From assembly GCA_947445025.1 (NCBI GenBank), contig CANFCB010000001.1, positions 2,816 to 66,815 of the forward strand: a stretch of DNA of 64,000 nucleotides, given 5' to 3'. The position numbers and the translations under genes were made by a program. Source of the DNA: Myxococcales bacterium (GTDB lineage: Bacteria > Myxococcota > UBA727 > JABDBI01). Below the pieces are notes generated by a model. That model was not told the origin of the DNA, ran no database searches, and saw only the letters and a list, made by a program, of their open reading frames with translations. Shown piece by piece: positions 8,712-19,111 of the stretch (the first letter of the stretch is position 1; every line of letters begins with the position of its first letter).

Positions 8712-10235
8712 TCAGCATTGCTGAATAAACGCTACTAAGGTTCTAACCCCAAAGCCAGCTCCTCCCTTACTCGTATAAGCATGATCTTTATCTTGCGTGG
8801 CTGGACCAGCAATATCAAGATGCGCCCAGGCAATGCCATCATTGACAAACTTCTTCAAAAAGAGCGCAGCAGTAATAGCGCCTCCATAACGGGTGCCAGT
8901 ATTCTTCATATCCGCAACAGTGCTTTTAAGTTGGTCGCGCAAATCTTCATTGAGCGGCAAGCGCCAATAGTCCTCACCTGCTGTTTTTCCAAGCGATATT
9001 AAAGTCTCTGCGAGTTCATCTTGCGTCGAAAATATCCCGGCAGTTTGAGGCCCTAAAGCGATCATGCAAGCGCCGGTCAACGTCGCCAAGTCAATCAGGT
9101 AGTCAGGTTCTTCTTTGCTTTGGGCATAATCAAGCGCATCTGCCAAAACCAGTCGTCCCTCAGCGTCGGTATTATTAATTTCGACAGTTAATCCGCGACG
9201 AGACTTGATCACATCTCCGGGGTGATAAGCATGTGGCCCTATTCCATTTTCAACACAGGAAAGATAACCAGTGACTGAAACATTGGGCTTTAATTTAGCG
9301 ACCGTGAGCATGGTAGCAAAAACAGCAGCGGCGCCAGACATGTCAACTTTCATATCCAGCATACCATCGGCGGGTTTGATATCTAAACCGCCTGAATCAA
9401 AAGTGACGCCTTTGCCCACCAGCGCAATATGTTTTTTGGCTTTTTTATCCGGATGATATTTCAGTACAATCAAACAGGGAGGGGCAACTTTGGCCGACGC
9501 TTTACCCACTGCTAAAATCAGACGCATGTTTTCTTTTTCGAGCTCTTTCTCTTCAAGAACTTCTACTTCAAGACCCAAAGCTTTTCCTTCTTTTAAGGCA
9601 AGTTTAGCCAGGGCAGGCGGGTTCACAACCCAAGGACCCTCATTGATGAGATCACGGGCGAAGCAAACACCCTCGCTTATGGCTTTTGCTTGGCGGACTA
9701 ATTCTTGATCGATTTTGTAATTTTTATCTGTGCAAGTGAGAAAAACATCTTTGACAAATATTTCAGGCTTGTTTTCCGTAAAGTATTTATCAAAACGATA
9801 ACGGGACAAATACACGCCTTCCGTTGCTGCAGATAAAGCTGCTTCAGGAGCAATTTTCGAGGCTGGCACTGATAATAAAAGATTAAAGCTAACCGCACGT
9901 TTATCGTTAGCAAGTCGAAAAGCCTGGCCGCCAGCGACGCGATAGCCATCAACGGTTATTTTATCTTGAAGCCCCAAACCAATCAAGGCAATGTAACTAG
10001 CGCCTGCTTCAGACAAGGTGCTGACAACAAATTGCTGTCCTGATTTTCCGCAAAACCCTTCTTTTTGCGCAGTGGCGATGATCTGTTTTTGCAACGTCGC
10101 GGTAGTTAATTTTAAGGCAGAAAAAAGCGAAGACAATTCAGGACATTTTTTCTCGCCAGAATCAAAAATGCCATAAGCAAAGATATCGATCTTTTTATTT
10201 TTTAGATCTCCAAGGGAGACAATAGATACTTTCAT
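8712..10235 (-). CDS. pepA: Leucyl/cytosol aminopeptidase (M17 family)
   Basis: NTDAEGRLVLADAL signature, M17 metal ligands, ~500 aa. Confidence 0.85.
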   Translation of the reverse strand: MKVSIVSLGDLKNKKIDIFAYGIFDSGEKKCPELSSLFSALKLTTATLQKQIIATAQKEGFCGKSGQQFVVSTLSEAGASYIALIGLGLQDKITVDGYRVAGGQAFRLANDKRAVSFNLLLSVPASKIAPEAALSAATEGVYLSRYRFDKYFTENKPEIFVKDVFLTCTDKNYKIDQELVRQAKAISEGVCFARDLINEGPWVVNPPALAKLALKEGKALGLEVEVLEEKELEKENMRLILAVGKASAKVAPPCLIVLKYHPDKKAKKHIALVGKGVTFDSGGLDIKPADGMLDMKVDMSGAAAVFATMLTVAKLKPNVSVTGYLSCVENGIGPHAYHPGDVIKSRRGLTVEINNTDAEGRLVLADALDYAQSKEEPDYLIDLATLTGACMIALGPQTAGIFSTQDELAETLISLGKTAGEDYWRLPLNEDLRDQLKSTVADMKNTGTRYGGAITAALFLKKFVNDGIAWAHLDIAGPATQDKDHAYTSKGGAGFGVRTLVAFIQQC

Positions 10236-14653: not shown

Positions 14654-15838
14654 TTACCATTTTTTTAAAGAAGTTTTTAATAATTGCACAGATTCTACAA
14701 TTTTGTCGGTTGCCACATTTTTTCGTTTCGCTAAATCTTTGCTATCCGCAACAAATCCAGAGGAATGTGAAATTAAGGTAGGCTGAAATAACCAACTCTT
14801 GGGGTTATTTAACAGCGCAAGCTCAACTGTGGCTTTTTGGTAAACAGGTTTTTCTAATCGGGTAATCCAGAGTTTATGATCAGCCATCACCAGCATGCCA
14901 TGATCATTGGGACTATCGCCGGCAATCAGATAAGGCATTTTTTTGATCCACTGTAAAATATTGGCTGATTTCCCATAATAAGCAGACATGGGAGGCACAA
15001 TTTGCGTCGACAACTTATATTATGATAATACAGCTGCACTTAAATTGGCATACTGCGTATTTTCAATTGCTAAAAACGGATCTTTATAAAGAAGCTCTTT
15101 TGGTCCATGTAAAAGCGCGGAGATGCCAATTATTTGTTGCGGTTTAATGCCGTTGCTAACGCCCCGTTCTTGTAATTTTTTATTTAACACTTGAGTGACT
15201 ATCCATCTCACACTCCAAACATTACTCGCCGATATAATCCAAACATCATAATCCGCCTTTAATAGCTCCCCGAGCAACTCCACCATTTCTGGATAAAAAT
15301 ACGGAACCGGTGTCTTTTCGATATGCGTCCATGATTCAGGATGCCTCATATCGTGTTCGGCTTTGCCATTCTGGTAGGCTAGCGAGGTTTTTTCAACAAT
15401 TTGTTGAGGGGTGAGACCTGCCATAATTTGCACAAGCCAAGCATAGGCATTTAAATACGGCGCTTTATCCAAAACATGATGGTTGCTGCTTTCCAGATAA
15501 GTTTGATAGACTGCCATTAAATCACCACTGGCAACAGAAATTGGCGTCGTTCCTTGGGGCAGATTTTCTGCAGTCAAAAGACCATCGCGTATCATGACCG
15601 CAAAGGTGGCTTCGCCGATATCACGACAAACCAGCGTGTTGTCAAAATCAAATACCACCGGAAGTTTCTGACCTTTTTTGGCCTCGATAATTTCAATGAG
15701 TCTTTTTTTAACGAAAGGATTCCAACCAGGCTCTTCTAGTTTAACGGTGCTCAATGCTGTACTTATTGATTGAGTAGCAAAAATAATAAAAGCTAAAAAA
15801 CAAAAACGCATCTTGAACTCCTTTAATTGGACCTTCAA
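14654..15838 (-). pseudogene. Secreted HAD-superfamily hydrolase gene interrupted by an in-frame TAA (two ORFs in the same frame)
   Basis: Upstream ORF has a signal peptide and HAD motif I (VVFDFDNTL). Downstream ORF has motif IV (AGDSPNDHGML). A single TAA at ~15020-15022 separates them in the same frame. Confidence 0.5.
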
Positions 15839-15875
15839 GAAACGATAGCTTCTGATAATTTGTTCCTATATTATT

Positions 15876-17051
15876 TTAAAAAAACTGCAGTTTTTTCATG
15901 TCATCGTGACGTTCTTTATCGATAGCGTGTACATAACGACGCGTTGTTTCATCACTTTCGTGACGATGATTGGCCTTGATGTGTCCAAAACGAATACCGA
16001 CTCTGTCTTGCATAGAAGCCGATAAATGCCTGAGCCAATGAGGGGAGAAACACTTTAGTTTATTCGCTCTGCTGGGATTATCTGCAATGCTCATCGCGGC
16101 TTTCACAGCAAGCTGTTTAAGCAAATACCCCATTTGTCTGGCGCCTAAAGCATGTTGATGATGCCAAGAGGGAATCAACGGAATTGTTTCATCGCAAGCA
16201 GGCAACGGCGGCAAGTTTAGATGCAGGCGAAAACGTATTACTTCATCGAGCAGCGCCGGATTAACGGGAATCTTTCCTGGCTTATCACCTTTGCCTACCA
16301 CGAAAAACCACCAGTCCCCGTGAATTTGCTTAAAGGCATTCCAGCCATGGGTTTCCAATTCATGAATACGAAGTCCCAGCAAAAATAAAATTGCTACTAA
16401 AAAACGCAAGCGTGCTTTTTCATCTCGTTCACGCGCATTGGTTTCGGTTAAGTCTTGCAAGGTATTTAATAAAAGCTGCCAATCTTCATCTTCTAAAATT
16501 CGCTCATGAAGTTTAATAGCTTGTGCTTGTTGACGTTGATGCCGGCTTGCTTTGCGGCGCATTAAGCTTAACGGATTAAACTCTAAATAAGATGCTGCTA
16601 GCAAATATTGAAACAAGGAATCCAAAATCGTAAGCGCCGTCATTTGCGCTGTAGGGCTTAAAGGACCAACAAAAGGTCGCCACGAAGAGACATGTCGCTT
16701 GCTTGCTCTGCTTCCTTTGGGACCACACCAAACATGCGCGGGCAGGGGATCAGACAAAAAGTGAATATATTCTTCAAAATCCTGCCTGGTTAACGATGAC
16801 AAGGCTTTTTTCTTTTCAATTAGACACCATAACAGCAAACGCTCAGATTCTTTTTGGTAAGCGCGATAGGTCGAAGACTTTGCTATATATTCAGACAACC
16901 AACAGCAAATCGCTTCCCAATCATTGCTTGCCGCAATTTGACAAGTCCGCGTGTGGCAGCGATTGGCTCCAGTTTCGCCATTGAGATGCTTTAAAGAATC
17001 CTGCAATAAATTAAGAGGCGCTAATTTCTGTATTTCCTGTAGTGGTGGCAT
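15876..17051 (-). mobile_element. Tyrosine-type site-specific recombinase/integrase
   Basis: Box I GLRIHELE; box II HWLRHLSAS…RFGH…TTRRYVH with the catalytic Tyr; N-terminal SAM-like domain. Confidence 0.8.
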
Positions 17052-18075
17052 CCGCTTTTTCCTGATTTTTTTGGCGATAGATCAACTCACGTTGCAGTTT
17101 TTGCCAAAATCCTTTGTATTCAATACTACGCTTATTCGCGACAGCTAATTCGCCACGCACCGCGGCATGCTTAATTTCCAACGCCCGGCAAAGCTTTACG
17201 ACTTGCTCAGATTCCTGCTCTTGTTTGCATGCTTTTTTTTGTGCCATAATTAATTCTTGCCTATGCAGCTCAACTTTTTCTTGCTGTATGGCGTATTTTT
17301 TAAGCACCAGCTCATTTTTTTCATGAAGATGTCTTAAGGTCACACGAAATTGATTGCTTTCATCGCTAAATGCTTGCCACTGTTCTTTATAAGTTATTTG
17401 CAATTGCAAAACACTCTGCTCTTTTTCGTTAAGCGTTTTCTGTGCTTTGTCTTTCCAAAAATCGATTTCTTTTTCCTGCACGGTTTTAAGCTCAGCTTGC
17501 AGCAGACTAAAATCGGTTTTATATTGGTAAAATAATTTTTCGCTGGTTTGGTAACGTTGCATGGTCAGCGCGTGCGTATTTTTTTCTTCACTAAGCTGCA
17601 TGCGCAATTCGCCATGCTGCTGCCGCATGGCTGCGAATTGGCTGTCTAGAGTTTGATGGTGCGCCTGCAGTTTTTCATGGGCTTCTTTTAACACACTGTA
17701 TTCTTGGTGGGATTTTTGAAGCTTGTCCGCAAAATCCTGGTGCATTTTTTCTAAGTGATCCTGGCTTTCACTTTGAATTTGCTCATAAACCAAAGCAACG
17801 GCACGACTAATGGGGTCACTGGGAGAGTCCGCGGGTTCACCCCCCGTCTCCACATCAGAAATTCCTCTGCTCATTTTCCAGGAGCGGCGAAATTTATACA
17901 TTTCATTGGGACTGCCTTTTTTATAACCCAAAACTATTAGCTGATCGCGAATGGCATCCCCAGTGATCTTATTAGGCAAGGCATGAAGCGCCCATAAATC
18001 ATCGCAGGCCTTCCAAACTTCATTTTCTCTTCGAGTCCCTGGGTAATCCATCATCTCTCTCCGCTCTATCCTCAA
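17011..18075 (-). CDS. KfrA-like protein: N-terminal DNA-binding domain plus long coiled coil (plasmid/ICE-type)
   Basis: N-terminus (…NEVWKACDDLWALHALPNKITGDAIRDQLIVLGYKKGSPNEMYKFRRSW) resembles the KfrA_N DNA-binding domain, followed by ~280 aa of heptad-rich Q/E/K/L sequence. The 3' end overlaps the integrase start by 41 nt. Confidence 0.5.
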   Translation of the reverse strand: MRIERREMMDYPGTRRENEVWKACDDLWALHALPNKITGDAIRDQLIVLGYKKGSPNEMYKFRRSWKMSRGISDVETGGEPADSPSDPISRAVALVYEQIQSESQDHLEKMHQDFADKLQKSHQEYSVLKEAHEKLQAHHQTLDSQFAAMRQQHGELRMQLSEEKNTHALTMQRYQTSEKLFYQYKTDFSLLQAELKTVQEKEIDFWKDKAQKTLNEKEQSVLQLQITYKEQWQAFSDESNQFRVTLRHLHEKNELVLKKYAIQQEKVELHRQELIMAQKKACKQEQESEQVVKLCRALEIKHAAVRGELAVANKRSIEYKGFWQKLQRELIYRQKNQEKADATTTGNTEISAS

Positions 18076-18211
18076 GTTTTATCATGAAAAATATAAGCAG
18101 TGTTGACAGAATAATAATTTTTAGTCAATCATAGTATCAATACTAGGCCGTAGTATTAATAAAATAAGTACGAAATCTTCTGATAACCTTAATTATCAGA
18201 ACTTTACTAAT
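18076..18211. promoter_or_regulatory. Operator-like inverted-repeat cluster upstream of the KfrA-like gene
   Basis: TAGTAT/ATACTA hexamers alternate at ~18132-18157. A 9-bp-arm palindrome cTTCTGATAA-ccttaa-TTATCAGAAc lies at ~18178-18201. Confidence 0.35.
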
Positions 18212-19111
18212 TTATTTACAGGTTGCTTGTGAGCGCAATTTTTCCATTTGCATGCGCAATTCGAGGCCGCTTGTATCTAAAGATAGGAAGTATGCTCGAC
18301 CATTAAAGAATATGGTAGGCGTACCCTCAAGACCCAGCATCTGGGCTTCTTTAGTGCTGTTCTCGATTTTTTCAATTATCTTAGGGTTGCTCAAGTCAGA
18401 CTGAAATTTTGTGAGCTTTTTACCTTGAAGACCTATTTCTTTGGCGATGTTTAAAATGTGCTTTTCGCTTAAAGACTGTTTGCTGTTAAATAATGCTTCG
18501 TGCATTTCCCAGAATTTACCCTGTTCGCCTGCTGCTTCTGAGGCAATGGCTGCAGCAAAGGACATAGGGTGAACGGGTAGTGGGTAGTGTTTGTAGACGA
18601 GTCGCATTTCTCCTGGATATTTTTTAAGGAGCGCATTTAAGGCGGCCGCGGTGGTTTTGCAGTGCGCACATTCGAAGTCAGCGAATTCAACTAGAGTGAT
18701 AAGGGGTTTTGCTGCACCTTTGCCATGGTAATCCGCTAAATCAATTATTTGCGGTCTGGCACTGAATCCTAAACCAATCTCTTTTGTGAGCGGTTCGGCC
18801 ATGATCTCAAAAGGAACACCTTGGCGGATATTTTCGATTGCCCATTGGCTTAACACAACTGCAGGTTGGCATTGCTCTGGGGTTTGCAAGCATCCTGCCA
18901 GGGATTTTGGGCACTCGCATGGGCAAATTTCTTCGTTGGCAAATTTTAAAAAAGCTTCTTTTTGGGGCGTTGATAACCCTGCCATAGAAACAGCAGGAAG
19001 GCGGCTATATTTGATTTCTTTTTTGGCACTGGAGGCTGCGCTGCATCCTTCTTTAGACATGCAATTGGCCGTCATAATTAATATCAACAGCAAGGTGAGT
19101 GACGTTTTCAT
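18212..19111 (-). CDS. Secreted DsbA-family thiol:disulfide oxidoreductase with an extra Cys-rich N-terminal domain
   Basis: Signal peptide; thioredoxin-fold active site FECAHC; additional CPCECP…C…C cysteines upstream. Confidence 0.7.
   Translation of the reverse strand: MKTSLTLLLILIMTANCMSKEGCSAASSAKKEIKYSRLPAVSMAGLSTPQKEAFLKFANEEICPCECPKSLAGCLQTPEQCQPAVVLSQWAIENIRQGVPFEIMAEPLTKEIGLGFSARPQIIDLADYHGKGAAKPLITLVEFADFECAHCKTTAAALNALLKKYPGEMRLVYKHYPLPVHPMSFAAAIASEAAGEQGKFWEMHEALFNSKQSLSEKHILNIAKEIGLQGKKLTKFQSDLSNPKIIEKIENSTKEAQMLGLEGTPTIFFNGRAYFLSLDTSGLELRMQMEKLRSQATCK

Follow-up and report, generated by a model that had tools for sequence, protein, structure and literature searches.

Why should a bacterial chromosome keep, among genes of its core genome, a tyrosine recombinase gene overlapped by a second gene that encodes a KfrA-like coiled-coil protein? 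The question is raised by a 64,000-nucleotide stretch of DNA from a Myxococcales bacterium (GenBank assembly GCA_947445025.1, contig CANFCB010000001.1, positions 2,816 to 66,815 of the forward strand; hereafter the window, in whose own numbering its coordinates are given). An earlier, sequence-only reading of this stretch had offered two answers, the decayed remnant of an integrated element or a domesticated recombinase pair. The answer that we consider probable, if by no means secure, is that the two genes belong to a self-contained, helper-assisted tyrosine-recombinase module of the transposon- or plasmid-resolution type, which has long been fixed in the chromosome. Judged from the sequence, its parts would stand in a fixed order, namely a core site, accessory repeats with a promoter, the helper gene and the recombinase gene, of which the last two are as follows.

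15876-17051, minus strand: tyrosine recombinase of 391 amino acids (aa), recognised by a Phage_integrase match and invariant catalytic residues.
17011-18075, minus strand: helper of 354 aa with a KfrA_N DNA-binding domain and a coiled-coil stalk, recognised by a KfrA_N match and an AlphaFold2 model.
17011-17051, minus strand: 41-nt overlap of the helper and recombinase genes, from the coordinates of the open reading frames (ORFs).

The recombinase passes the Pfam threshold for Phage_integrase narrowly (27.9 bits, threshold 27.1), and its only other Pfam match is a weak one to SAM_4. Its catalytic boxes, which the sequence-only reading had called complete, are so indeed: R228, K254, H338-x-x-R341, H364 and Y373 are invariant columns in a family alignment of 30 recombinase sequences. 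The overlap of 41 nt, also as first described, recurs identically in three orthologous loci, L009, L001 and L051, whose recombinases are 88, 84 and 66% identical to that of the window, and it would probably couple translation of the recombinase to that of the helper. Both genes are intact and under strong purifying selection, the ratio of nonsynonymous to synonymous substitution rates (dN/dS) between the window and L009 and L001 being 0.05-0.08 for the recombinase and 0.12-0.17 for the helper, at a dS of about 1.

The helper scores 33.8 bits on Pfam KfrA_N (cut-off 26.1) and has no match to any NCBIfam model. Its AlphaFold2 model, run on an alignment of 21 database homologues, shows a three-helix N-terminal domain at residues 15-70 (helices 15-31, 39-48 and 56-70), a disordered linker and then one unbroken helix, 88-336, with a mean predicted local distance difference test score (pLDDT) of 83. 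The KfrA_N-like N-terminus proposed from the sequence therefore stands, whereas the coiled coil measures about 250 aa and not the proposed ~280, because the modelled helix is confined to residues 88-336. Searches of the PDB with this tail returned generic coiled coils only (myosin, lamin, BST2). The length of 354 aa is that of the maximal ORF; the true start is probably the ATG at 18051, giving 346 aa, to judge from its position at the invariant M9 of the homologue alignment (A4) and from a database protein (P0241) of exactly 346 aa.

What would such a helper be for? The sequence-only reading had placed it, as a KfrA-like protein, among partition or host factors, but a recombination helper of the TnpT type describes it better. 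Aligned with TnpT of TnXax1 by hhalign (alignment A3), the helper reaches a probability of 98.5% with an E-value of 2e-15 over 164 columns, a relationship of which pairwise BLASTP between helper and TnpT detected nothing. That TnpT (L050 9736-10791, on pXAC64), a protein of 351 aa, in turn scores 96 bits on Pfam KfrA_N. A review-type paper of 2020 states that TnpT lacks homology to other proteins, and our literature searches found no text that makes the link between TnpT and KfrA_N. The recombinase, for its part, is related to two resolvases: it is 29% identical over its full length to XerL of Coxiella burnetii, with which it shares the motifs WRPF, WWF-x-V-GKG and HWLRH, and 33% identical over the core-binding and catalytic domains to the 'TnpR' of Tn4401. 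Because these relatives are resolvases, a resolvase-type role is suggested for the window recombinase too. The resolution of dimers or cointegrates that carry the same site would be the most likely task of the module.

If so, where is the site? No att repeat had been obvious to the sequence-only reading, yet a 9-6-9 palindrome lies upstream of the helper, and a 17-nt direct repeat, taken up below, brackets both genes. Three elements can be distinguished in the upstream stretch.

18178-18201, no strand assigned: candidate core (crossover) site, TTCTGATAA-CCTTAA-TTATCAGAA as read on the plus strand, with 9-bp inverted arms and a 6-bp spacer.
18131-18157, minus strand: accessory repeats, three TACTA/TAGTA half-sites (18155-18151, 18145-18141 and 18136-18132) found by reading the sequence.
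18111-18140, minus strand: sigma-70-like promoter with a -35 hexamer TTGATA, an 18-nt spacer and a -10 hexamer TATTAT (10/12 matches).

The core palindrome, TTCTGATAA-N6-TTATCAGAA, stands about 125 nt upstream of the helper ORF and has a single match in the 64-kb window, which holds no second core site at up to 3 mismatches. Its arms are identical in the window, L009, L001 and L051, even though synonymous sites are saturated, and the spacers between them read, in gene orientation, TTAAGG (window), TGGAGG (L009), TTAAAG (L001) and TTGTGA (L051). Across the wider family, a core match of at least 12/14 occurs within 300 nt upstream of the helper in 14 of 38 loci, where 500 composition-preserving (mononucleotide) shuffles gave a mean of 0.09 and a maximum of 2; the remaining 610 kb, outside the helper-upstream stretches, contain 16 core matches. 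Read in the direction of the operon, the spacer retains a single polarity, being usually T-first and G-rich, with TGGTGA as its commonest form. The arms also persist where the helper is missing: on a Variovorax plasmid (L007), CTTCTGATAA-ccggta-TTATCAGAAG lies 30 nt upstream of a 40%-identical recombinase that has no helper, and two helper-less metagenome loci (L127 and L163) likewise carry core arms upstream of the recombinase gene, the distances in the three cases ranging from 30 to 85 nt. Since helper-less relatives keep the arms in this position, the core site tracks the recombinase and not the helper. No similar core was found upstream of Tn4401 tnpR or of the pHG1 recombinase.

Might the palindrome be a transcriptional element only, either an operator for the helper or a host regulator or a hairpin that ends the upstream gene, with the recombinase target lying elsewhere? 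Its position, 6-12 nt past the stop codon of a DsbA-like gene on the same strand, would suit such a role, as would its being common in unrelated metagenome contexts; KfrA proteins, moreover, autoregulate through operator repeats. We nevertheless hold this explanation to be very unlikely, for what is kept across recombinases only 40% identical, the GC-rich, helper-less Variovorax plasmid included, is the arm sequence itself and not just its pairing, the polarity of the spacer is conserved relative to the operon, the upstream genes vary in identity and orientation from locus to locus, and synteny breakpoints coincide with the site (see below). A terminator was rejected because the AT-rich stem has 2 G-C pairs and no T-run and was not called in a terminator scan, and a Fur or LexA box was rejected on spacing, as judged by the familiar consensus sequences.

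The three TACTA half-sites are spaced about 10 bp apart in forward-reverse-forward order between the core site and the helper start, where they form a putative helper-binding operator, and the -35 hexamer of the promoter-like element overlaps the second and third of them. They are kept in the window, L009, L001 and L051, whose helpers are at least 43% identical, whereas loci with divergent helpers have other short repeats in their place (TTACGT-type, TTACACT/AGTGTAA, GATGTCAC/GTGACATC). The accessory repeats thus track the helper, being kept with similar helpers and replaced where helpers diverge.

Has the core site ever been used? The order helper-recombinase-HAD-TauE-permease is common to the window, L009, L001 and L051, with PepA in the shared block, and the window, L009 and L001 can be aligned, at about 80% DNA identity, over shared genes for at least 5-11 kb, only for the alignment to end at window position 18206 (L009 5414, L001 8848), within about 6 nt of the outer arm. 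On the other side of this point the neighbours are DsbA-like, TsaD and Nuo genes in the window, HemA, a cytochrome c assembly protein and an aminotransferase in L009, and an RCC1-repeat gene, purF-L-Q-S and radA in L001. As the outgroup L051 shares HemA with L009, HemA-module-HAD is the ancestral order. The window and L001 have thus each been rearranged independently, with both breaks ending at the core site, and these two breaks argue that the site has been used in the course of evolution; they also suggest that site-specific recombination has been one cause of chromosomal rearrangement in these genomes.

The layout of the module, its conservation, the selection on both genes, the kinship of the helper with TnpT, the enrichment of the core at its position and the breakpoints beside it are shown by the sequences; from these we infer which protein binds which repeat, where the crossover falls and what the module does for the cell. 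Recombinase monomers would bind the two 9-bp arms of the core, two core sites would synapse, and strands would be exchanged across the 6-bp spacer via Y373. With its KfrA_N domain the helper would bind the three TACTA half-sites, which lie some 25-45 bp inward of the core; once bound, it would repress the operon's own promoter, and its coiled-coil stalk would help to assemble or to filter the synapse, much as TnpT does at the accessory inverted repeat of rst, the site of the TnpS/TnpT system. The module as a whole would be of plasmid or transposon ancestry and would have been kept functional.

Several observations weigh against a helper-assisted resolution module of this kind. The window holds one core site only, so that no substrate pair is visible. 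A role in chromosome dimer resolution is unsupported by GC skew. Nor does the palindrome belong to the module alone, and the idea that it might was given up: at least 120 metagenome stretches carry the exact pattern and, among the matches listed, 3 adjoin a recombinase homologue and many lie inside coding regions. About half of the family loci have no recognisable core match near the helper, and in some of these a match lies 1-3 kb upstream of it with genes in between. Promoter-like matches in the region do not exceed the count expected by chance, which makes the promoter suggestive by its position alone. Nor is the likeness to the TnpS/TnpT system complete, because the recombinase has no detectable similarity to TnpS (BLASTP E >1; hhalign probability 0.2%), because the two window genes overlap and run in one direction, with the site upstream, whereas tnpS and tnpT diverge with rst between them, and because there is no Tn3-type transposase nearby and the window module has no terminal inverted repeats.

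Among the metagenome matches to the palindrome, three looked at first sight like paired sites flanking a module, a notion that was rejected: L057 (1168/3569), L104 (1105/3509) and L121 (4417/6904) carry the 9-6-9 palindrome, with the spacer CGGGCA/TGCCCG, within inverted repeats of at least 50 bp that lie inside two other, opposed ORFs about 2.4 kb apart, with ORFs of 156 and 278 aa between them. A recombinase homologue was not detectable in these contigs with the queries used, and the arrangement resembles an invertible segment of an unrelated system, maybe a phase-variable specificity-gene shufflon.

The direct repeat mentioned above raises the question of whether the module integrated by itself. 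Its downstream copy is an element in its own right.

15842-15858, no strand assigned: solitary half-site with flank, ACGATAGCTTCTGATAA, 17 nt past the recombinase stop codon.

Together with positions 18170-18186, which comprise the inner arm of the core site and its flank, this copy makes up a 17-nt direct repeat, ACGAnAnCTTCTGATAA, whose two copies match at 15/17 positions, are spaced by 2328 nt and bracket exactly the helper and recombinase genes. It is conceivable that the recombinase of a minimal integrative element, a 2.3-kb unit, once inserted this element in circular form between hemA and the HAD gene, and that the element was then immobilised by the decay of one junction, with the helper as directionality or architectural factor. 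Such an origin would also account for a module that occurs in many unrelated chromosomal contexts, several times per genome, and is common to a Myxococcota-labelled lineage and Gammaproteobacteria. The downstream copy, however, lacks a second arm, its sequence is degenerate in L009 and L001, and the same 7 kb contain seven further repeat families of comparable quality, for which reasons the repeat is suggestive only. Moreover, no other locus has a downstream half-site, no empty site was found, and the unit has stayed in place under purifying selection while recombinases diverged from 88% to 66% identity, so that we regard self-integration as unlikely, though worth bearing in mind.

How far, then, does the module extend beyond this lineage? 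Homologues of the recombinase number 689, and in hundreds of these the identity along the whole protein exceeds 50%. In public genomes the recombinase is found in 39 loci, most of them in metagenome-assembled genomes (MAGs) labelled Coxiellaceae, Francisellaceae, Legionellales or Gammaproteobacteria; the closest (88%) belongs to a MAG labelled Myxococcales, and the nearest matches of the window's own Rho come from MAGs labelled Myxococcota, Deltaproteobacteria or Polyangia. In nearly all 39 loci a KfrA_N gene stands directly upstream of the recombinase gene, abutting or overlapping it, and the same pairing recurs in metagenome contigs. Two size classes exist, one with a recombinase of about 390-400 aa and a helper of about 340-360 aa, the other with a recombinase of about 500 aa and a helper of about 250-280 aa. 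Plasmid 4 of Aquicella lusitana carries the pair as well, with a recombinase 53.8% identical to that of the window. That the module is common to a Myxococcota-labelled lineage and distant Gammaproteobacteria points to an old horizontal transfer between very distant lineages; with its presence on the Aquicella plasmid and in defence-island contexts, the same distribution makes it likely that the module descends from a mobile genetic element.

Several genomes carry 2-3 modules. On contig JBEKHL010000009.1, two modules of the 500-aa subfamily (L034 and L046) lie about 13 kb apart in the same orientation, and in MAGs with 2-3 modules the core arms are near-identical; in one MAG with three (L031, L033 and L038), two share the spacer TGGAGA. 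How is cross-recombination between modules with such similar arms avoided? In a further locus, L028 (10019-11186), a frameshift or a long-read error divides the recombinase into parts of 309 and 85 aa, on a contig of 1.75 Mb, at about 49% of which the locus lies; it has two KfrA_N genes.

The immediate neighbourhood of the window pair, a mixture of core genes, a broken HAD gene and a DsbA-like gene, is as the sequence-only reading described it.

14654-15838: HAD-like gene directly downstream of the recombinase gene, interrupted by an in-frame TAA (15020-15022) that leaves parts of 272 and 119 aa.
18212-19111: DsbA/Thioredoxin_4-like gene, a Pfam-level match.

Could the pair be all that is left of a larger plasmid or integrative and conjugative element (ICE), to whose cargo the DsbA-like and HAD genes would once have belonged? 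The in-frame stop in the HAD gene, the occurrence of the module on a plasmid in Aquicella and the plasmid-associated nature of the KfrA_N domain may all seem to speak for decay of this sort. Yet the HAD and TauE genes are syntenic and intact in the relatives (HAD orthologues of 393 aa in L001 and 405 aa in L051), and the split in the window is due to a nonsense mutation of recent date or else to faulty sequencing. The DsbA-like gene lies outside the conserved block, is absent beside the pair in L009, L001 and L051, and bears no TrbB or ICE signature. The inner flank continues into core chromosome (Rho, PepA, SpoT and transporters), as does the outer one (TsaD, Nuo), and no conjugation, phage or plasmid-replication genes lie near the pair. 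Both recombination genes, moreover, are intact and selected. Synteny and dN/dS thus largely refute the decayed remnant, which we rate as very improbable indeed; the second half of the earlier interpretation, a domesticated recombinase pair, is by contrast upheld by the shared order with HAD, TauE, permease and PepA in L009, L001 and L051 and by purifying selection, so that the interpretation as a whole is supported in part. A phage origin was also rejected, viral contigs holding only relatives of 23-26% identity, and so was membership of a defence system, as the pair has no padloc match. No tRNA occurs anywhere in the 64-kb window, in keeping with the sequence-only reading, which had noted none nearby; no transposase-sized ORF lies within 5 kb of the pair; and no terminal overlaps were found that would make the short module-bearing contigs circular.

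A long-resident, selected recombinase beside a symmetric site also invites comparison with the primary system of chromosome dimer resolution, in which the recombinase gene would adjoin dif, as in XerS/difSL or as for XerL on Coxiella plasmids. XerL, to which the window recombinase is related, is a single-recombinase system with symmetric arms whose dif lies beside xerL on those plasmids, and the outer neighbourhood at dif is variable in Legionella also (PMC9765430). The window holds no XerC or XerD gene in its 64 kb. The inner geometry of classical dif is ATAA-N6-TTAT, and the arms of the candidate core share it. GC skew, however, tells another story. In the window, the cumulative curve declines from 6 kb onwards, bottoms out at about 18.5 kb, exactly where the core site lies, climbs steeply to a maximum at 32 kb and is then flat, whereas a terminus at the site should show a maximum there; the polarity at the site is thus of the origin type, with no dnaA-type context nearby, and may be due either to the arrival of the tsaD/nuo block at the site by rearrangement or to the base composition of the membrane-protein genes of nuo. 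Nor do 17 loci, compared locally over about 8 kb on either side, show a consistent plus-to-minus flip, most of them having no sign change at the site. A primary dimer-resolution system would, in addition, be hard to reconcile with genomes that carry 2-3 modules, with a contig that has two of them 13 kb apart, or with Aquicella, which has a chromosomal XerL and carries the module on a plasmid. We therefore think it distinctly unlikely that the module is the dif/Xer system of its host, and the resolution of plasmid- or transposon-type dimers and cointegrates by a helper-assisted module remains our preferred reading.

One further neighbour deserves mention. A gene for PepA, an M17 aminopeptidase, lies at window 8712-10235, about 6 kb downstream of the module and within the conserved block. 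In Escherichia coli, PepA assists Xer recombination at the cer and psi sites of plasmids as an accessory factor; its presence near the module is probably a coincidence.

In other loci, co-oriented cargo genes are found between the core site and the helper gene: AbiEi/AbiEii pairs (L032, L035, L039 and L041), Abi_2 (L014), AbiJ_NTD4 (the Aquicella plasmid), YhcG nucleases (L020 and L025) and, in L033, a TcdA/TcdB-type glycosyltransferase with an LRR protein; L006 is also among the loci with genes in this position. The distance from cargo to helper start can be as little as 10 nt, so that the cargo appears to be embedded in the operon. One module lies in a defence island with TIR, HamA and a DEAD/DEAH-box helicase (a HamAB-like pair) and Schlafen-like genes. 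Toxin-antitoxin pairs adjoin res sites in Tn3-family elements (PMC7157771), and the Abi and toxin genes beside the core site echo that arrangement, which lends support to an ancestry in mobile elements. Repeat proteins of eukaryote-like kind (RCC1, ankyrin, LRR) and toxin-type glycosyltransferases also stand beside modules at L001 7342-8562, L052 3310-3798 and L033 308-2175, and such effector-like neighbours suggest that the carriers, including the low-GC Myxococcota-labelled lineage of the window, are host-associated.

Do cargo and synteny breaks together mean that the site is still at work? It may be imagined that the core site is an active exchange point at which outer chromosomal neighbourhoods are swapped and inner cargo (AbiE, Abi_2, AbiJ, YhcG, toxin-like glycosyltransferase or LRR effectors) is collected in the interval from site and promoter to helper gene, a speculation that we consider rather unlikely. 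Were it true, the module would be a gene-capture and rearrangement platform, integron-like but mechanistically distinct, in the chromosomes and plasmids of host-associated bacteria, and divergent pairs of helper and accessory repeats would keep co-resident modules orthogonal.

What is new here, in our view, is a TnpT-type helper joined to a recombinase of the XerL/Tn4401-TnpR clade and provided with a defined candidate site, helper-assisted resolvases as a kind being already known; full-text literature searches found no description of this combination of helper and recombinase clade. The module is widespread in uncultured bacteria, in MAGs labelled Coxiellaceae, Francisellaceae and Legionellales as well as in the low-GC Myxococcota-labelled lineage, and it suggests that KfrA-like coiled-coil proteins act in site-specific recombination. 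As a compact candidate pair of recombinase and site with 9-6-9 arms, it might also serve as a tool.

How does the module compare with systems already described? One that is close in composition is the heteromeric resolvase TnpS+TnpT/rst of Tn4651-type transposons in the Tn3 family (Tn4651, TnXax1 and TnXocp1), in which rst consists of a core inverted repeat for TnpS and an accessory inverted repeat for TnpT that overlap promoters (PMC4619425; PMC7157771). Shared features are a tyrosine recombinase with a helper of about 350 aa, the helper being homologous to TnpT, and the gathering of passenger, toxin-antitoxin or Abi genes beside the site. The 9-6-9 core and the separate conserved half-sites of the window would be the counterparts of the two inverted repeats of rst. 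Besides the differences in gene order and transposition functions already weighed, the window module differs in being chromosomal and vertically inherited.

XerL of the Legionellales (Lpg1867), a single-recombinase dimer resolvase with a perfectly symmetric site, needs no helper and is sufficient in yeast, and a dif copy adjoins xerL on Coxiella plasmids (PMC9765430). The window system resembles it in its broad recombinase clade, in the symmetry of the site and, as on those plasmids, in the position of the site next to the recombinase gene; it differs in arm sequence, in having a KfrA_N helper, none of which is encoded beside xerL on QpH1, and in that its site is not at a terminus-type switch of GC skew. 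The Aquicella plasmid-4 member had been listed as an XerL-like match beside the chromosomal XerL of Aquicella (Table S3 of PMC9765430). Because Aquicella has both, the window family and XerL are paralogous systems, and the plasmid-4 match is a separate system, which corrects that listing. The Tn4401 'TnpR', which gives its name to a subgroup among the simple tyrosine recombinases (Smyshlyaev et al. 2021, PMC8138268), likewise has a resolvase-type role, within a Tn3-family element, but carries an N-terminal DUF3701 in cis (92 bits), whereas the window recombinase lacks DUF3701 and has a separate helper.

With KfrA of IncP and IncU plasmids (RK2, RA3), the helper has in common a KfrA_N domain followed by a long alpha-helical coiled-coil tail and, probably, autoregulation through repeats in its own promoter, for which the position of the repeats is seen here and the function is that familiar from KfrA. 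Unlike KfrA, it stands outside any korA/incC/korB/kfrB/kfrC operon, is chromosomal and has the recombinase as its only conserved partner. Lastly, TnpI/irs of Tn4430 and Tn5401 and Cre/loxP dispense with a separate helper protein, and TnpI itself binds the accessory repeats beside its core, which impose resolution selectivity and regulate the promoter (PMC7157771); with the window module, both systems share a recombination site immediately upstream of the recombinase gene.

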